Assembly (NCBI GenBank): GCA_037446635.1
Contig: JBBIIG010000029.1
Location: 1 to 56,460 of the forward strand
Direction: 5' to 3'
From: a bacterium
GTDB lineage: Bacteria; Zhuqueibacterota; Zhuqueibacteria; Oceanimicrobiales; Oceanimicrobiaceae
Length of the DNA: 56,460 nucleotides
Positions 1 through 26,038 of the stretch are shown piece by piece (the stretch's first letter is position 1; each line of letters opens with the position of its first letter). The position numbers and the translations under genes are program-made. Below the pieces are notes generated by a model. That model made no database searches. It saw nothing but the letters and a program-made list of their open reading frames with translations, and had not been told where the DNA came from.

Positions 1-701
1 AACGCCGCTTCCATCGAATCGACGATTTCGAATTTGGTGCCAGCCTTTTTCGCGTTGGCGCGCGCAGCTTCGAGGGTAGGTTTCATCAGCGTGTATTCCG
101 GCGGATGCGCCAGCACCACATCCAGTCCAAAGCGCGGCATCAGCATAATCAATCCCTGCGGTACCGACATCGGTTTGGCATACGACGGCGCGTAGGCCCA
201 TGAAACCGCGATTTTTCTTCCGCGCAAATTTTTACCAAAAATTTCGCGAATGGTCATCAAGTCCGCCAGCGTCTGGCAGGGATGATCGACATCGCACTGC
301 ATGTTGATGACCGGCTTGTCCGCCCATTTGGCGATTTCGCGCATGTAGCTGTTGCCTTCGCCGGGGACGAGATCATGACGCACCGCGATGCCGTGGCCGT
401 ACGACGACAGAATGATGCCGGTGTCTTTCGGGCTTTCGCCGTGAGCAATCTGCGACGTGGAGGACTCGATAAAATGCGCGTGCCCGCCCAACTGCGTGAT
501 GCCGGCTTCAAAGGAGTTGCGGGTGCGGGTGGATTTGTCAAAAAATAAGAGGAAGATGGTTTTATCGGGCAAATAGCGATGCGGCACGCCGTTTTTGAAT
601 TTGCCTTTTAGATCCGCGGCGGTGTCTAACGCCAGTTCGATTTCCGCGTCGCTCCAATCCTGGGTGGAGATGTAGTCTTTGCCTTTGAGGGTTTGGTTCA
701 T
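1..701 (-). CDS. Ornithine/aspartate carbamoyltransferase family protein, YgeW-like knotted transcarbamylase (3' end outside window)
   Basis: Manual translation from ATG 701 (RBS GGAAGGAG upstream): MNQTLKGKDYISTQDW...DKSTRTRNSFE (carbamoyl-phosphate motif)...HPCQTLAD...SWAYAPSYAKPMSVPQG, the last resembling YgeW WAYSPSYGKPLSVPQG. Not in the ORF track because it has no stop in the window. Confidence 0.85.
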   Translation of the reverse strand, partial: MNQTLKGKDYISTQDWSDAEIELALDTAADLKGKFKNGVPHRYLPDKTIFLLFFDKSTRTRNSFEAGITQLGGHAHFIESSTSQIAHGESPKDTGIILSSYGHGIAVRHDLVPGEGNSYMREIAKWADKPVINMQCDVDHPCQTLADLMTIREIFGKNLRGRKIAVSWAYAPSYAKPMSVPQGLIMLMPRFGLDVVLAHPPEYTLMKPTLEAARANAKKAGTKFEIVDSMEAA

Positions 702-719
702 GAGTGCTCCTTCCAATAA

Positions 720-1793
720 TTAGTCTTCATCGTCAAATAAGCTTGGCTGAATTCTCTTTGAGAGATCCAGGGTCTCGGGCTTAAATTTCATAAGCTGTTT
801 AAGCAACTCTGCTTGGGTTGCTTTATTACTGATATTAAATGCCCACCCAACTTGAGTCTTGTAGCTCATGCATTTTCTAAGCGGTTCATCGAAAGCACTC
901 GCTACGTTCATAAGAAAATCTTTAACGATCCTTCTTAAGTGTTTCTTAGCTTCGTTATCTTCCCAAATCTCATAGAGTCCGAAGGTAGCAGAATTTAGAA
1001 ATCCCTCAGTTGTGAACACCAGTGAAGCCGGCATATCCGCTCCACCTATCTCACTAATGATATGACTAAGGATTCTTTCAAACAATATTCTTCGACAGAA
1101 TTCCTGTTCTTCTTTGGACTGCTGATCCATGCAGTTTGGATCGTATGGAATGAAATACAAAGGGCGGGGATCGCTATCTTCTTCGAGTTGAATAACTTCA
1201 ACAGGAGATGGTCTTCCAAGACTTAGATGGCGTTCAACCGTTTCGGAGAATTCTAAAAAAATCCCAGTCTGAGACGAAGTTAAGCCAAAACAGCCATGGG
1301 CTCCGGGTTCTAGCTTTAGATTTCTAATTTCTCGTGAAAGAATATCGAAAGTCTCGTCCATTAATTGCATCTGCGATGAGCCAATCAAATAGCACAGTAA
1401 TCCTAAATTTTGGCCTCTTCCTCCCAAACCCAAAACTTCAAAGACGATTGGCCCGGCAAGCAATAGTAGTGTTGTTGCCTGCTTTGCATTTGATGACGCT
1501 GAGCTGAAGGACGAGGCTTTGCATTCGAGGATACAGTATTTCTTGGATGCCTTAATAGACTCTAAAATTAAGTCGGGTCTCGCGCCATCTTGACAGTCCA
1601 ACTTGTCTCCAATAGAAATTCTAATATCTGGCGGCAATGCGAGCAGCGGCCCTATTGAATAAATATTCAATCCGGATTCATAGAACAAAGGATAAACATA
1701 GGAGTGCTCCCGAGCTTGTGGCTGCGTTAGCCAAATTGCCAGATTCAATTGAAATAAAGCGTCTTTGCAAAGCTCGTCGATACTAGGGTTCAT
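720..1793 (-). CDS. Hypothetical protein with putative PD-(D/E)xK nuclease motif
   Basis: 357-aa ORF, AT-rich relative to flanks; motif RPDLIL...CILECKAS; start overlaps the end of the upstream gene by 11 nt. Confidence 0.7.
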   Translation of the reverse strand: MNPSIDELCKDALFQLNLAIWLTQPQAREHSYVYPLFYESGLNIYSIGPLLALPPDIRISIGDKLDCQDGARPDLILESIKASKKYCILECKASSFSSASSNAKQATTLLLLAGPIVFEVLGLGGRGQNLGLLCYLIGSSQMQLMDETFDILSREIRNLKLEPGAHGCFGLTSSQTGIFLEFSETVERHLSLGRPSPVEVIQLEEDSDPRPLYFIPYDPNCMDQQSKEEQEFCRRILFERILSHIISEIGGADMPASLVFTTEGFLNSATFGLYEIWEDNEAKKHLRRIVKDFLMNVASAFDEPLRKCMSYKTQVGWAFNISNKATQAELLKQLMKFKPETLDLSKRIQPSLFDDED

Positions 1794-3042
1794 ACTTCAC
1801 CGCCTTAGACGACTGCTCAACCATTTCCTTGTATTCGACATCTCCAATGTAAGCCTTGGCGGATGGATCGATATACTTCTGAATATTGCAAATGAGACGG
1901 TGAATTGTGTTTCCACAGGTTCCCTTGGGCAATATGGCCATTAAATGTTTGTCGGTTAATTCAAGAAAAATGGGCTTCCAAAGATGTCGATCTATTCCAT
2001 AAACATGAACTTTTTTGGGCCCGAGAATGATTGGATTACCCCAAAGTCGAAAGCGATTATTTAATCGTCCGAAGCTCGATTTGATCCAATAATCAAAAGT
2101 GTCTTTGCTCAGAGATTCACCAAAAATGATTGTCACGGGCGAGCCGATTATTTTCTGAAATTGACCAGGTTTGGCAACGGTTTCATTAGAATACCATGCT
2201 TTCTCTTCCGTCATCTTCATTAGGCGATCGTAAATCCTTTGCACGTAGATAATATGAGACCTGTGATCTCTAAAATTGCCACTCCTGTTTGTGACTTTGC
2301 CGTTGTCAAAAAAATCATGTCCACCTCTTCCAATAGGAGATGGAAATCTTAATTGACTTATTGCATAAAGTGGTGAATAAAGATTTTGAAGCTGACTTAG
2401 TTTTTCTTGGACAACCGAAATTTTGTCAACAAGTTTGAACTTTGATGCTCTTCTTTCAACAATTTGTGTCAGCTCCTCTTCGTCATGAAGCAAGGAGTTT
2501 TCGTCCTCATCTTCGAGTTCGTCGTCGTGAGCTTCGGAATCAATTTGATATAAACTCTCGTGCACAAATAATATACTGGCATATCTATGAGGTTTACTTA
2601 ATTGGACCACTCTTTGCCATAACACATTAAACGTAAGTCCGCTTAGCCACACATGATCCAATTCCGGCGAATGGATTACAAGATGTTTTACCCACTTATC
2701 AGCGTCTTTGCTTTCGTGCAGCGTATAAAACACAAAATATCTATTTGTCAAAACTTCAATAAAGCCTATGCCTTTGCCATTTTCTCTTTTATCAAAAACA
2801 CTGAAGAGCGATTCCTCAATCTCTTTCAACTCAATTCCGAGAGAGAATAAAAGCTCTTGAATCTGCCTTTGCCTTCCAGTATGGCCCGTATATTCAATCA
2901 TATAACTTTTGACCAATGGCCGCTTCACTTTCCGTTCATCCAATTCCTCCATACGTTCGGATGAATATCCGTCCAGATAACGAATCATTCCCTCTCGTGA
3001 GTTTATGGATTTTATTTCTTTGAAAATATCAATACCAAGCAT
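1783..3042 (-). CDS. Hypothetical protein of unrecognised family
   Basis: 419-aa AT-rich ORF with GGAG RBS, a central acidic loop (DDELEDEDE) and C-terminal FRLWG...GTCGNTIHRL motifs. Confidence 0.75.
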   Translation of the reverse strand: MLGIDIFKEIKSINSREGMIRYLDGYSSERMEELDERKVKRPLVKSYMIEYTGHTGRQRQIQELLFSLGIELKEIEESLFSVFDKRENGKGIGFIEVLTNRYFVFYTLHESKDADKWVKHLVIHSPELDHVWLSGLTFNVLWQRVVQLSKPHRYASILFVHESLYQIDSEAHDDELEDEDENSLLHDEEELTQIVERRASKFKLVDKISVVQEKLSQLQNLYSPLYAISQLRFPSPIGRGGHDFFDNGKVTNRSGNFRDHRSHIIYVQRIYDRLMKMTEEKAWYSNETVAKPGQFQKIIGSPVTIIFGESLSKDTFDYWIKSSFGRLNNRFRLWGNPIILGPKKVHVYGIDRHLWKPIFLELTDKHLMAILPKGTCGNTIHRLICNIQKYIDPSAKAYIGDVEYKEMVEQSSKAVKYEP

Positions 3043-3245
3043 TTTTTCTCCACAAGTGGGTGGTTTAGTTTTTATGAAACGTGCGCATCAAAATATAAAA
3101 AACGAGACCAAAAAGCAAATGCCGATTCCGTTAAAACGGACTGGAGAAAATTTGTGAAGGCAGGGGGCCCTCCTGACCGCCACTATTTTTCCGCGACGCA
3201 GATCCGCTAAGCGGACAAAATCGAAAATTTGGGAAGGAAACATTC

Positions 3246-4847
3246 TCACAAATAATCTTTTCGCAGCAGCAACTTTATCATCCCCGGCACGGCGCGCAAT
3301 CTCTTCCAAATTGTATTTTCGTGGAGAAATTCCAACAGTGAGCTAAACCCGCACGGCAAATCTCGATTGTACCGAAACCACCAGAGATCGTTGTCCACCA
3401 AACGCTTGACGGCCTTTCCCAATATCCTATTAAAAAGCGGTCGATCTAAATTAATGTATTTTGGCCGAACCAACTCCATGATGCCCCAGGGGCCATGACT
3501 GACGCCGATGGCGCTGTTTTTGTATCCGGTGTAGGGCGCTTCGCTTTGCGCGATGTGTAGAAAAATATCATTGATGAGCACCGCACCGGCCTTAATTTTT
3601 TGCGCAATCTTGAGGCCGCGCTCACGGTCCCGCGTCCACACGCTGGCGGACAAACCGAAGTTAGAGTCGTTGGCGAGAAACGCGGCTTCATCATCGGTGA
3701 TGAACGGCGTGACGATCATCACCGGCCCAAAAATTTCGTCCCTGGCAATGTTCATTGCAGCGGTTACGTTCGTGAGAATGGTCGGCTCAAAATACCAACC
3801 TTCCTGATTGCGAACGGGTTTGCCTCCCAAACGGACAACGGCGCCCTTTTGGGCGGCGTCGTTGACCAGCCGTTCAATTTTAGCCAACTGCTGGTGGGAA
3901 ATTAAAGACGAAATCTCACCTTCTTCCGAGTCGTTCGCTTTCAATCGCAGCGCGCGCGCTTTGTCGATCAATTCTTCCAGAAATGGCTCGAAAATGGACT
4001 CTTGAACAAACAGCCGCTCTACCGATAAGCACGCTTGGCCGGCGTTGGTGAATCCACCCCACAACGCGGCGTTCACCGCGCGTTTCCGATTGGCATCTTC
4101 CAAGACAATCATCGCATCGCTGCCGCCGAGTTCCATGTTGACGGGCGTCAAATTCTCCGCCGCAGATTGATAGATTTTTCTGCCCACTTCCGTGCTGCCG
4201 GTGAAGCAAATCTTGTCAACTTTTGCGCTGGTCAACGCGCTGCCGATATCGGCCAGGCCGGTGACGATCTCAAGCACACCTTTGGGCAAATAGCTGCGAT
4301 CAAACACTTCGCGAATCTTGAGTCCCATCTGAGTGGCATGTTCCGATGGTTTATGGATTACCACATTTCCCACCAGCAGCGCCGGCACAATGTGGTGCAT
4401 GGCCAGCAAAAAAGGAAAATTCCAGGAGGAAATCACCAAGACGACGCCCAGCGGCTCATAGCGCACGTAACCCGTTCTAATTTTCAGCAGCGGGTTCGAA
4501 GCGGCGACTTTCTGATCTTGTAAAAATTTCGGGATGTATTTGAGGTAGTATTTAAAACAATCGAGCACCACCAGAACTTCGGTGTAGGCTTCAACAATAT
4601 GTTTGCCAGTTTCCTCAGAAATCAAGCGCGCAATTTCATCCCGCGCCAGAAAGAACTCGCGATGGGCTTTGCGGAACAACTCCAAACGGGTTTGCAAGCT
4701 CAGCTCCGACCAGGTTTCAAAAGCGGAGCGGGCTTTGGCAAGAACGGCTGGTATCTCCTCAGGCGGGGTGCTGGCGAAGGCGGCAATGGTTTGTCCGGAG
4801 CCAGGGTGGATGGAGAAGAGTTTGCCGGCGTCAATTTTAAGCGCCAT
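3246..4847 (-). CDS. Aldehyde dehydrogenase family protein
   Basis: SWNFP, FTGSTEVG, ELGGSDA, catalytic NAGQAC and EIFGPV motifs. Confidence 0.93.
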   Translation of the reverse strand: MALKIDAGKLFSIHPGSGQTIAAFASTPPEEIPAVLAKARSAFETWSELSLQTRLELFRKAHREFFLARDEIARLISEETGKHIVEAYTEVLVVLDCFKYYLKYIPKFLQDQKVAASNPLLKIRTGYVRYEPLGVVLVISSWNFPFLLAMHHIVPALLVGNVVIHKPSEHATQMGLKIREVFDRSYLPKGVLEIVTGLADIGSALTSAKVDKICFTGSTEVGRKIYQSAAENLTPVNMELGGSDAMIVLEDANRKRAVNAALWGGFTNAGQACLSVERLFVQESIFEPFLEELIDKARALRLKANDSEEGEISSLISHQQLAKIERLVNDAAQKGAVVRLGGKPVRNQEGWYFEPTILTNVTAAMNIARDEIFGPVMIVTPFITDDEAAFLANDSNFGLSASVWTRDRERGLKIAQKIKAGAVLINDIFLHIAQSEAPYTGYKNSAIGVSHGPWGIMELVRPKYINLDRPLFNRILGKAVKRLVDNDLWWFRYNRDLPCGFSSLLEFLHENTIWKRLRAVPGMIKLLLRKDYL

Positions 4848-22993: not shown

Positions 22994-25900
22994 TTACTTC
23001 GTGCTCTCCTCAACGATTTTGATTTCCTCCTCCTTCAGTTCGTACAACTCGTAAACGAGGCGGTCGATTTGGTGGTCGGTGGCGGCGATTTGGCGCTCCT
23101 GCAGGGTGAGGGTTTCGCCGGTTTGGGCCGCGGCTTTTTGTTGGTGCAATTTTAACATACGCTCCACCAGCGCGACTATCTGATCGTGGCGGGCTTTGTC
23201 TTTGGGATTGGAGAAATCGATTCTGCGAATTGGAAGCTGCTCAAGAATTGTTGGCTTGACTTGGGCTAAAACTCGTCCCTTCTCTATAGCTAAAAGTCTA
23301 TAAACAAAAACGAATAGACTTGAGTTAAGAATACCCATCAAATAGTAGGGATTCACAGAACTCTTGAGTCCAAATAAATACAACCCATCAGTAGCAAACG
23401 TCTGCATCTCATCCATGGCAACAGTAATTTTGTCACCAGTGATTACGCCTACCAGCTTTTTGTTTTTTGTGAATATCCTTTCTTCTCTCGGACGATGCAG
23501 AGAATACAATGGGTGCTTCTTTTGGCGGACTTCACTGCAAGTAATTTCATTCTTGAATTGATCAATATAACCACAGATGTTAGGCAGCTCCCGAAAGTTA
23601 TCATCTCGTCTTGTGTAAATTAGCCACAGATCAGGATACTCAATGAAGTAACGTTTTACTTGTTTTCCTCCAGTGAGTACTTCTCGTAGCTTTGATTTTT
23701 CCAGATCATATTTTCTGACGGTTTCACTTTCAACAATGAATGCCTTTTGTAAGTCCGGGCTAACGCCTCGTTGAATTCCATCATCGTCAACAAGATTCTC
23801 TAAACGTTGATGAGGCACTTTATTTACCCTGTTCCAAATGAGATACCTATCTATCTGCGATGTCACGAAAAGCGCGCCGGGAATTTCTAACAATTCTTTC
23901 TGTTTAATTTGCTCATAGTATTTTTCATCAAATAGTGCAGTTCTCTTTTCGATTTTTTCGAATTGAGAAAAATCAGAGATCCTAATTGAATTCTCGTTAA
24001 AAGAAACATTTTCGAAAACTAAAATTGAAGTTGGGCGAGTCACTTTTTCAAAAACGTTTCCCATGTTAAAGACGGAATTGATTTTATAGTTCATCAACAA
24101 ATGACGGCGAAGCTTCTCATTGTCTATTTGATACAAAATCACATCTGGAAGAATCATTCCGAAGTAACCGGCGGCCTTGAGCTTTTCACTCATTTGAAAA
24201 ACAAAATACATGAATGAGTCGATCATTCTAACAATGATGGGTCGATTCCTTTTTCTGAGGTATTCGAGTTCATCCTCGCGAAAGTCGGCTCCCCACGGCG
24301 GATTCCCAATCACCGCATCAAACCCGCCCGCTGCCATGATCTCCGCAAACTCCCGCTGCCAGTCAAACGCGTTGATGCGATACATTTCATCTTCACTCAG
24401 CAAATTGAGCTGTTGGCCGTCGTAAAAATCCGGGCCAATGAGCGAGTTGCCGCATTTGATGTTGCCGCCCAACTCCGGCAGCACGCGCTCGTGAAAAAAC
24501 GCCAACTGCCGCGAGATGCTCTGCTCGTCCTCGCCTTCCAACACTTTCAGCAGCAGCGAAAGCTTGGTCACCTCCACCGCCTGCGGGTCGATGTCCACGC
24601 CGTAAATGTTCCTGAGCAAAATGCGCTTGCGCTCGTCGCTGGTCACCCGCCATTCGCCGTGATCGTTTTTATAAATGCGCGGGCTACGGCCGGCTGCCCA
24701 TTTTTCCGCGCCGTCCGACAAATAGGCGTCGAGGTGCCAGTCCAGCAGAAACTGGTACGCGCCCAACAGAAACGAACCGGAGCCACAAGCAGGATCGAGA
24801 ATGCGGAGCTGGCTGACTCCGCCCCGAGGCCCGGGCTTTTTGCCCTCCACCAGTTTGCCAACGGTTTGCCGCACAATGTAATCGACGATGTAAGTCGGGG
24901 TGTAATAAACGCCGCCGGCTTTGCGCACCTCGGGCTTGTCCTCCACCACGGCACGGTGCCCGGCAGTGAGGCGAATCACTTTGCCGAGGAAACGCTCGTA
25001 AACCTGCCCGAGGATGTCGGCGGGCAGCACGGAAAATTCGTACGGGCTGTCGGGATAGTAGAGGCTTTTGATGATGACCTTCAGTACCTCGTCATCGATG
25101 GTGAGATCCGGCGTGAGGTTGTCGATGCTGTCGCCGGGGCGATCCTTTTCTGGCTGAAAATGGAAGAGGCCGGAGTTGAAGCGCTCGTCGGCGCGATAGA
25201 ACATTTCCACGAGGCGCGGGTAAACGCGGGCGCCGTTTTGCAGGGCGCGCAGGGTTTCATACTGCTCGATGCCGCGGTCTTCGCAAATGCGCAGAAAGAC
25301 GATGCGGTCGATGGTGCGCTGCACCGCAAAGTTGAGATCGCGCTGGCTGAGGTGAGGATTGCGCAGGGCGAGGTTACGGGCGAGGCTTTCGCGCCAGTAT
25401 TCGATTTCTTCGAGGAAGGCTTCGTCCACTTCGGCGGCGCCGCGCTTGCCCTTTTTGGCTTCCACGAATTTGTCGAACGAGCCCTTCATGATGGCGTCGG
25501 GCGAGAAGATGCTGGCGAGCTCGTCCCAGCGCTCGGCGTAGTCGCGGAAGGTGAGGTAGAGGATGCGGGCCGCGGCGGCTTTGTCGGTTTGCACCGGTTT
25601 GATGCGGCAGTCGTACACGGCGAATTCTTCGAAATCGGTGAGAATGCTGACGGGCAGCTTGGCGCTCCACGCGTAGCGGCGCAACTGGTAGGCCGGGTGA
25701 ATTTCCTCTTTGATGAAAACCGACGGCTTCTTGGCTTCGAGGAAGAACTTGCGCACGCCGCCGATGCGGAAGGAGTAGTCGGGCGCTTTGGTGGCGTGCC
25801 CCACTTTTATCGCGTCCTCGTGCACGACCTCTTTGTAGGCCTCGGCGTAGCCTTTGGCGTTGTCGATGTCCCAGCCCAGCGCTTTGAAAAACGGATCAAT

Positions 25901-26038
25901 GAACTCGCGACGGACTTGGGCTTCGTTGTAGCGCCCGGCTTTGTATTCCTCGAGGTTGCGCTCGAAGCGGGCAATGAGGTCAGAGATGGTGGTTTGGTTT
26001 TTCATGATGTTTCCGATGGTGTTGGGTTTTATTCCCAC
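22994..26038 (-). CDS. Type IIG restriction-modification enzyme (fused endonuclease, N6-adenine methyltransferase and target-recognition domain)
   Basis: N-terminal PDY...EAKK nuclease motif; GVYYTP, ILDPACGSGSFL, YGVDID, GNSL and FDAVIGNPPW; alternative start ATG 26005. Confidence 0.92.
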   Translation of the reverse strand: MGIKPNTIGNIMKNQTTISDLIARFERNLEEYKAGRYNEAQVRREFIDPFFKALGWDIDNAKGYAEAYKEVVHEDAIKVGHATKAPDYSFRIGGVRKFFLEAKKPSVFIKEEIHPAYQLRRYAWSAKLPVSILTDFEEFAVYDCRIKPVQTDKAAAARILYLTFRDYAERWDELASIFSPDAIMKGSFDKFVEAKKGKRGAAEVDEAFLEEIEYWRESLARNLALRNPHLSQRDLNFAVQRTIDRIVFLRICEDRGIEQYETLRALQNGARVYPRLVEMFYRADERFNSGLFHFQPEKDRPGDSIDNLTPDLTIDDEVLKVIIKSLYYPDSPYEFSVLPADILGQVYERFLGKVIRLTAGHRAVVEDKPEVRKAGGVYYTPTYIVDYIVRQTVGKLVEGKKPGPRGGVSQLRILDPACGSGSFLLGAYQFLLDWHLDAYLSDGAEKWAAGRSPRIYKNDHGEWRVTSDERKRILLRNIYGVDIDPQAVEVTKLSLLLKVLEGEDEQSISRQLAFFHERVLPELGGNIKCGNSLIGPDFYDGQQLNLLSEDEMYRINAFDWQREFAEIMAAGGFDAVIGNPPWGADFREDELEYLRKRNRPIIVRMIDSFMYFVFQMSEKLKAAGYFGMILPDVILYQIDNEKLRRHLLMNYKINSVFNMGNVFEKVTRPTSILVFENVSFNENSIRISDFSQFEKIEKRTALFDEKYYEQIKQKELLEIPGALFVTSQIDRYLIWNRVNKVPHQRLENLVDDDGIQRGVSPDLQKAFIVESETVRKYDLEKSKLREVLTGGKQVKRYFIEYPDLWLIYTRRDDNFRELPNICGYIDQFKNEITCSEVRQKKHPLYSLHRPREERIFTKNKKLVGVITGDKITVAMDEMQTFATDGLYLFGLKSSVNPYYLMGILNSSLFVFVYRLLAIEKGRVLAQVKPTILEQLPIRRIDFSNPKDKARHDQIVALVERMLKLHQQKAAAQTGETLTLQERQIAATDHQIDRLVYELYELKEEEIKIVEESTK

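Follow-up and report, generated by a model that had tools for sequence, protein, structure and literature searches.

The stretch of DNA analysed here (the window) is a 56,460-nucleotide contig, JBBIIG010000029.1, from a bacterium of the family Oceanimicrobiaceae (assembly GCA_037446635.1), in which two co-oriented genes, A and B, form a compact cassette between an aldehyde dehydrogenase gene and a carbamoyltransferase gene (Table 1). The end of A overlaps the start of B by 11 nt which, together with the AAGGCGGTGA motif just ahead of B, suggests that the translation of the two genes is coupled. The cassette differs in composition from its surroundings: GC content is 0.39 in A and 0.42 in B (0.38 and 0.41 at third codon positions, GC3), compared with 0.50-0.55 (GC3 0.63-0.70) in four neighbouring genes and with a genome mean of 0.525; among 8,827 genome windows of equal size the cassette ranks at the 0.3 percentile. 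The ATG of the carbamoyltransferase gene lies 18 nt beyond the B stop and, given this short gap, the gene may now be co-transcribed with the cassette; as a fragment, its product has its best NCBIfam match, below the cut-off, to the knotted YgeW family (199 bits). No integrase, transposase or methyltransferase gene adjoins the cassette among the open reading frames of the window (Pfam scan), and no flanking repeats stand out around it. In each of these respects (the overlapping co-oriented frames, the AT-richness, the two flanks with their 18-nt gap and the lack of adjacent integrase, transposase or methyltransferase genes) the initial annotation, made from the letters alone, had described the locus correctly. 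Promoter and terminator scans gave matches at chance level (6 versus 6.4 and 3 versus 2.2, respectively), and, among sequencing runs, no RNA run carrying the cassette is listed and one DNA run contains only a 245-base piece of B.

Table 1. Features of the cassette and its flanks (window positions)
Feature	Position	Strand	Description or basis
Gene A	1783..3042	-	419 aa, MJECL33-like (PF25924); TBP-like alpha/beta scaffold of three units (predicted)
Gene B	720..1793	-	357 aa, MJECL32-like; PD-(D/E)xK nuclease domain at the N-terminus, winged helix at the C-terminus (both predicted)
A residues 14-277	2212..3003	-	predicted fold; weak alignment along the entire length of CENP-L, Iml3 and E. coli RdgC
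A acidic loop, residues 170-193	2464..2535	-	pLDDT <50; 13 D/E of 24
A residues 283-402	1837..2196	-	extra TBP-like half domain (predicted)
B predicted active site, P73-D74...E90-x-K92...Q105	1479..1577	-	residue conservation
B residues 227-340	774..1115	-	predicted winged-helix domain (model)
A stop / B start overlap, 11 nt	1783..1793	-	preceded by AAGGCGGTGA at 1797-1806
GGAG ahead of A	3048..3051	-	ribosome-binding-site-like motif (sequence)
Aldehyde dehydrogenase (PF00171), upstream flank	3246..4847	-	host gene, outside the cassette
Carbamoyltransferase (PF02729), downstream flank	3..701	-	host gene, truncated by the contig end
GGAAGGAG motif belonging to carbamoyltransferase	707-714	-	sequence

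The two genes are inherited as one unit. Within a set of 80 metagenome loci found via B (the best 80 of 168 matches), A lies directly upstream of B in all 77 that have room for it, and the two genes overlap in 142 of 145 measured homologous pairs. Across 92 dereplicated pairs the pairwise identities of A and B rise and fall together (Spearman 0.88), with means of 48% for A and 33% for B, and DNA similarity between relatives and the window begins at the A start and stops at or before the B end. Both genes are under purifying selection in six relatives, with pN of 0.13-0.15 in A and 0.22-0.23 in B against pS of 0.75-0.82.

The cassette is an insertion. A genome of the same genus (G001, 74% complete) carries both flank genes on one contig about 180 nt apart with no cassette between them, where the spacing in the window is 2,544 nt; the flank proteins are 77% and 93% identical to those of the window. 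Among 13 relative stretches examined, the carbamoyltransferase adjoins the dehydrogenase in this genome only, and aligning its intergenic DNA with that of the window did not pinpoint the site of insertion. The cassette is single-copy in its genome, and the only match to an A profile among 61 relatives, as among 167 genomes of the phylum, came from the window's own genome. GTDB, by contrast, holds 124 relatives of A, the best 80 of which (the GTDB set below) span many bacterial phyla and one archaeon, and copies are borne by plasmids in Bacillus, Metabacillus and Halobacterium; the pair moves between phyla. A had no match in 50,697 annotated phage records; one viral contig in IMG/VR (L190) carries an intact, divergent A-B pair. 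At two loci (L057:14324-15379 on the minus strand and L047:9548-10240) a second copy of A, divergent or partial and without B, lies near an intact pair.

B is a predicted PD-(D/E)xK nuclease. Its structural model (predicted local distance difference test, pLDDT, 93.6) contains the restriction-endonuclease-like core fold that defines this superfamily, and the closest folds to residues 1-200 are NucS/EndoMS, Mrr-like proteins and the catalytic domains of BsmI and FokI, at 8-13% identity. With these enzymes B shares the catalytic core and the invariant Q that follows the ExK motif, whereas the other domains and the partners differ. The putative catalytic residues D/E74, E90, K92 and Q105 are kept in all 92 dereplicated intact pairs, so that an unconserved PD/ExK motif, one of the refuting conditions named in the initial annotation, does not apply; the motif had been spaced wrongly as RPDLIL-x11-ECK, the actual spacing being RPDLIL-x12-ECK. 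No fused, longer form of B (642-2000 aa) was found, which is weak evidence.

For A, the model (pLDDT 88.4) weakly suggests a scaffold like that of RdgC, Iml3 and CENP-L with one further TBP-like half domain. The motifs and acidic loop that had been picked out beforehand are all present: GGHDF (240), FRLWG (331), GIDRH (349), GTCGNT (374) and the loop at residues 170-193, whose net charge is -5 or lower across columns 165-197 in 104 of 125 alignment rows. The best-conserved motifs, with D351, H353, C376, N378, R382, N386 and Q388, lie in the extra half domain (residues 283-402). The reading of A as a non-catalytic partner gains a tentative lead from its modelled fold. Membership of the RdgC family by sequence was considered and rejected, as A matches neither the Pfam RdgC model (none at E<=1) nor the sequences of solved RdgC structures.

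Scans of A and B themselves against Pfam, PADLOC and NCBIfam gave no match. Their relatives lead to named families: all 120 listed of the 561 homologues of A carry PF25924, at 56-78% identity, and A falls near an atlas cluster named MJECL33 (score 0.96), so that A, first described as matching no recognised family, does have one. The assignment of B is weaker, with PF27326 in 2 of 120 listed homologues (136 in total) and a nearby atlas cluster named MJECL32 at rank 8 (score 0.94). MJECL33 and MJECL32 are presumably adjacent genes of the large extrachromosomal element of Methanocaldococcus jannaschii. PF25924 and PF27326 are sequence families for which we found no described function or system. 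When distant members were included (48 and 55 proteins, respectively), PADLOC-DB 2.0.0 with its PDC candidates and NCBIfam 20.0 gave only stray matches (E 0.002-0.03) to 48 and 47 diverse members of the families and one neighbour. Among PDB sequences the best match to an A profile was unrelated (E 0.068), with none to RdgC, and a B profile matched nothing; neither model reached E<=0.001 against anything in Foldseek, and RexA, Kiwa and DpnI were absent from the fold matches listed, which does not exclude them. In the literature outside subscription journals and supplements, no paper turned up on the MJECL33/MJECL32 names, their accessions or RdgC-like defence; tables of large defence screens may list the family. 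The candidates of a preprint on embedded defences are in the PADLOC library, where A and B have no match.

A restriction-modification (RM) subunit profile matches within 4 kb of the pair at 39 of the 80 independent metagenome loci, and at 31 of the 52 whose flank spans 3 kb or more. The baseline for such neighbours is 1.4% of 20,000 random windows, taken from the window's own genome only, and the metagenome loci are related to one another; the corresponding GTDB count (26/80) is circular, as the GTDB loci themselves supplied the RM profiles. The commonest arrangement is Res-A-B-Mod (17 loci); in 4 others Mod and Res flank the pair in the reverse order, and in 8 the pair lies within mod. These last belong to one lineage (90-100% identical), and the break in the gene falls where the methyltransferase domain ends, with no duplication. 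At L004:8722-13332 (and likewise in L005, L006 and L126-L130) the mod halves, of 425 aa (methyltransferase) and 267 aa (C-terminal), are both open frames. The Mod genes resemble type III methyltransferases and the Res genes, with scores under the cut-off, the BPTD_3080 family. At one locus (L003) A overlaps the res stop and mod begins 3 nt past B. The pair also lies inside DISARM in three loci, and further neighbours include type I RM, Hma, CBASS, Gabija, BREX-like and Hachiman genes; the scans covered 130 and 124 neighbouring proteins on Pfam and, on PADLOC, 66 hand-picked from 416 dereplicated proteins, a list that gives no rate. In a tree built by a quick method without bootstrap, the window's clade (20 rows; support by SH-aLRT 99) comprises 13 members with type III neighbours, 5 whose flanks are too short and 2 that stand alone, and type III neighbours are seen again in other clades. 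By contrast, 41 of 92 rows lack any RM gene within 1.5 kb, many of them set among housekeeping genes like the window copy, and a profile search found no Res homologue in the window's genome; hence the pair does not belong to RM systems as an obligate subunit.

Other neighbours lie outside these systems. Bacillaceae plasmid copies have ahead of them, in the same orientation, a gene annotated as a PemK/MazF toxin (L191:9064-9801 and L192:7051-7767); in its place L051 has a 240-aa frame with no Pfam match at 1e-10. In sponge-type Acidimicrobiia (L033, L045, L047, L050, L053, L058, L059, L068) the cassette often has a DUF222/HNH gene directly beside it, which in L045 and L059 occupies the former place of B. 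The window itself encodes, 20 kb from the cassette (22994-26038, minus strand), a stand-alone 1014-aa fused restriction-methyltransferase of type IIG-like form with Eco57I, N6_Mtase, HSDR_N and TaqI_C domains; elsewhere in its genome are a type I RM operon (hsdM, hsdS, hsdR; G000:C41:25901-32964) and several lone methyltransferase genes.

The two genes are not lost equally. Of 76 assessable loci with an intact A, 9 have a broken B and 7 have none, whereas A is broken in 1 of 62 loci with an intact B (16/76 versus 1/62; Fisher p 4e-4). Restricting the first count to the closer loci (L001-L029) leaves B defective in 5 of 28 against A in 1 of 62 (p 0.01), and after dereplication 13 of 68 clusters have a B-defective member. 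L028, which failed the coverage cut-off and was first scored as broken, is an intact 347-aa frame and was counted as such; an A-anchored locus (L038) has a stop in A and an intact B. Because the comparison draws on two different collections, each limited to its best 80 matches, and on related, non-independent loci, the asymmetry is a hint, one easier to reconcile with A holding back a harmful B than with A as a mere activator.

Taken together, the pair is probably a nuclease-plus-partner defence cassette, undescribed within the literature searched. The initial annotation had proposed an undescribed two-gene defence system and had named as its checks the co-occurrence of the genes, an empty site in a related genome, a neighbourhood of defence genes and a match to a named system. 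The proposal is borne out in part: the first three checks have turned out in its favour and the last has found no system in PADLOC or NCBIfam, and the protein families already have Pfam names. A role in defence, by whatever mechanism, is probable: the mobile cassette is likely an anti-phage or anti-plasmid module because the pair travels together between distant microbes and often sits inside known anti-virus operons, and genes embedded in defence operons are mostly defences themselves, as a study of such loci argues (10.1101/2024.01.29.577857).

For the mechanism we favour, at roughly an even chance, a two-component defence nuclease in which A is a DNA-binding lock and sensor and B the effector. 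The predicted DNA-clamp-like A would likely hold B in check until foreign DNA, or a signal of infection, sets B free to cut. Translational coupling would supply the complex in matched amounts, A would bind DNA irrespective of its sequence, in the manner of RdgC and lambda RexA, and free B would be harmful, for which reason B would decay first. Such a module could form a second layer behind methylation-based restriction, on which it would not depend.

One close parallel is lambda RexAB, a two-gene exclusion module whose non-specific DNA-binding partner RexA has an RdgC/Iml3/Chl4 fold (PMC11077077). The model of A weakly resembles RdgC and Iml3 in turn, but A has the extra C-terminal half domain and the acidic loop. 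RexB is a membrane protein, whereas B combines a soluble nuclease fold with a winged helix and no RexB-type membrane partner is present. The pair also recalls PrrC, a nuclease embedded in the EcoprrI RM operon and inactive until infection (PMC12707154; 10.1101/2024.01.29.577857). It differs in kind of fold, with neither the ABC ATPase nor the anticodon nuclease (tRNase) domain of PrrC and RloC (Pfam, NCBIfam, PADLOC), in having two genes embedded chiefly in type III RM and DISARM, and in often standing alone, as the window copy does outside any RM operon, where PrrC is nearly always embedded.

The alternative that survives best, and which we nevertheless think unlikely, is modification-dependent, type IV-like restriction, in which the winged helix of B would read a modified base as DpnI does and A would load or activate B, the pair serving the methylation-based system around it as a backup against modified phage DNA. 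Such an enzyme needs no cognate methyltransferase, which matches the lone copies, and B has the domain order of DpnI and other winged-helix type IV/IIM enzymes, an N-terminal PD-ExK domain followed by a winged helix (PMC12707154); GmrSD-like type IV enzymes are moreover frequently embedded in defence operons (10.1101/2024.01.29.577857). DpnI, however, is a single protein with no sequence match here (Pfam, PDB), whereas B invariably follows a large partner. Neither A nor B matches DpnI, Mrr or McrBC models in Pfam or PADLOC, the pair adjoins many unrelated adenine methyltransferases, and an activating A predicts equal loss of either gene, unlike the skew observed.

We regard as less probable still a selfish toxin-antitoxin or addiction cassette, with B as a DNase toxin, A as its antidote and RM operons as mere insertion hotspots. 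The antidote-first order, the coupled translation, the earlier loss of B, the many lone copies amid housekeeping genes and the plasmid copies beside a MazF/PemK gene would all suit it. Typical antitoxins, however, are unlike A, which is large and better conserved than B, and co-oriented copies embedded in type III RM and DISARM, or next to type I RM, turn up repeatedly, in several clades.

A minimal mobile element, in which B with its TnsA-like domain order would cut DNA to move the cassette, is very unlikely: terminal repeats and target duplication are absent here and at the split mod gene, no transposase or integrase is among the recurring neighbours, and the window's genome holds one copy. 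A Tn7-like element proper was likewise rejected, as TnsB/TnsC partners and terminal repeats are absent. An accessory pair dedicated to type III-like RM, of which the window copy would be a leftover, accords with the type III neighbours of 13 of the 15 own-clade members with enough flank and with the tight packing at L003, but it is highly improbable given intact lone copies under purifying selection, the window's included, the failure of the profile search to find a Res homologue in that genome, and DISARM or type I contexts in other clades. Type II RM was set aside too, as no cognate methyltransferase lies beside the nuclease, the flanks are housekeeping genes and the RM-free pairs counted above are many. 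A DNA repair or recombination pair, a NucS/EndoMS-like nuclease with an RdgC-like clamp, draws on fold neighbours that work in repair and can hardly be squared with the sporadic distribution (1/167), foreign composition, frequent loss of B and defence contexts.

Returning to the lock-and-sensor reading, its most specific form is bolder and in our estimate doubtful: that A is a bacterial relative of the RdgC/CENP-L clamp acting as both sensor and lock, which grips DNA or a phage DNA mimic and releases a PD-(D/E)xK-winged-helix effector, making the pair a portable guardian of type III RM, DISARM and type I RM across bacteria and archaea. If true, such a sensor/lock clamp would be an undescribed defence architecture and the second defence use of a kinetochore-related clamp fold, RexA being the first; and if A is a genuine RdgC/CENP-L-type clamp that gates a nuclease, it would tie a kinetochore-related fold to prokaryotic immunity.
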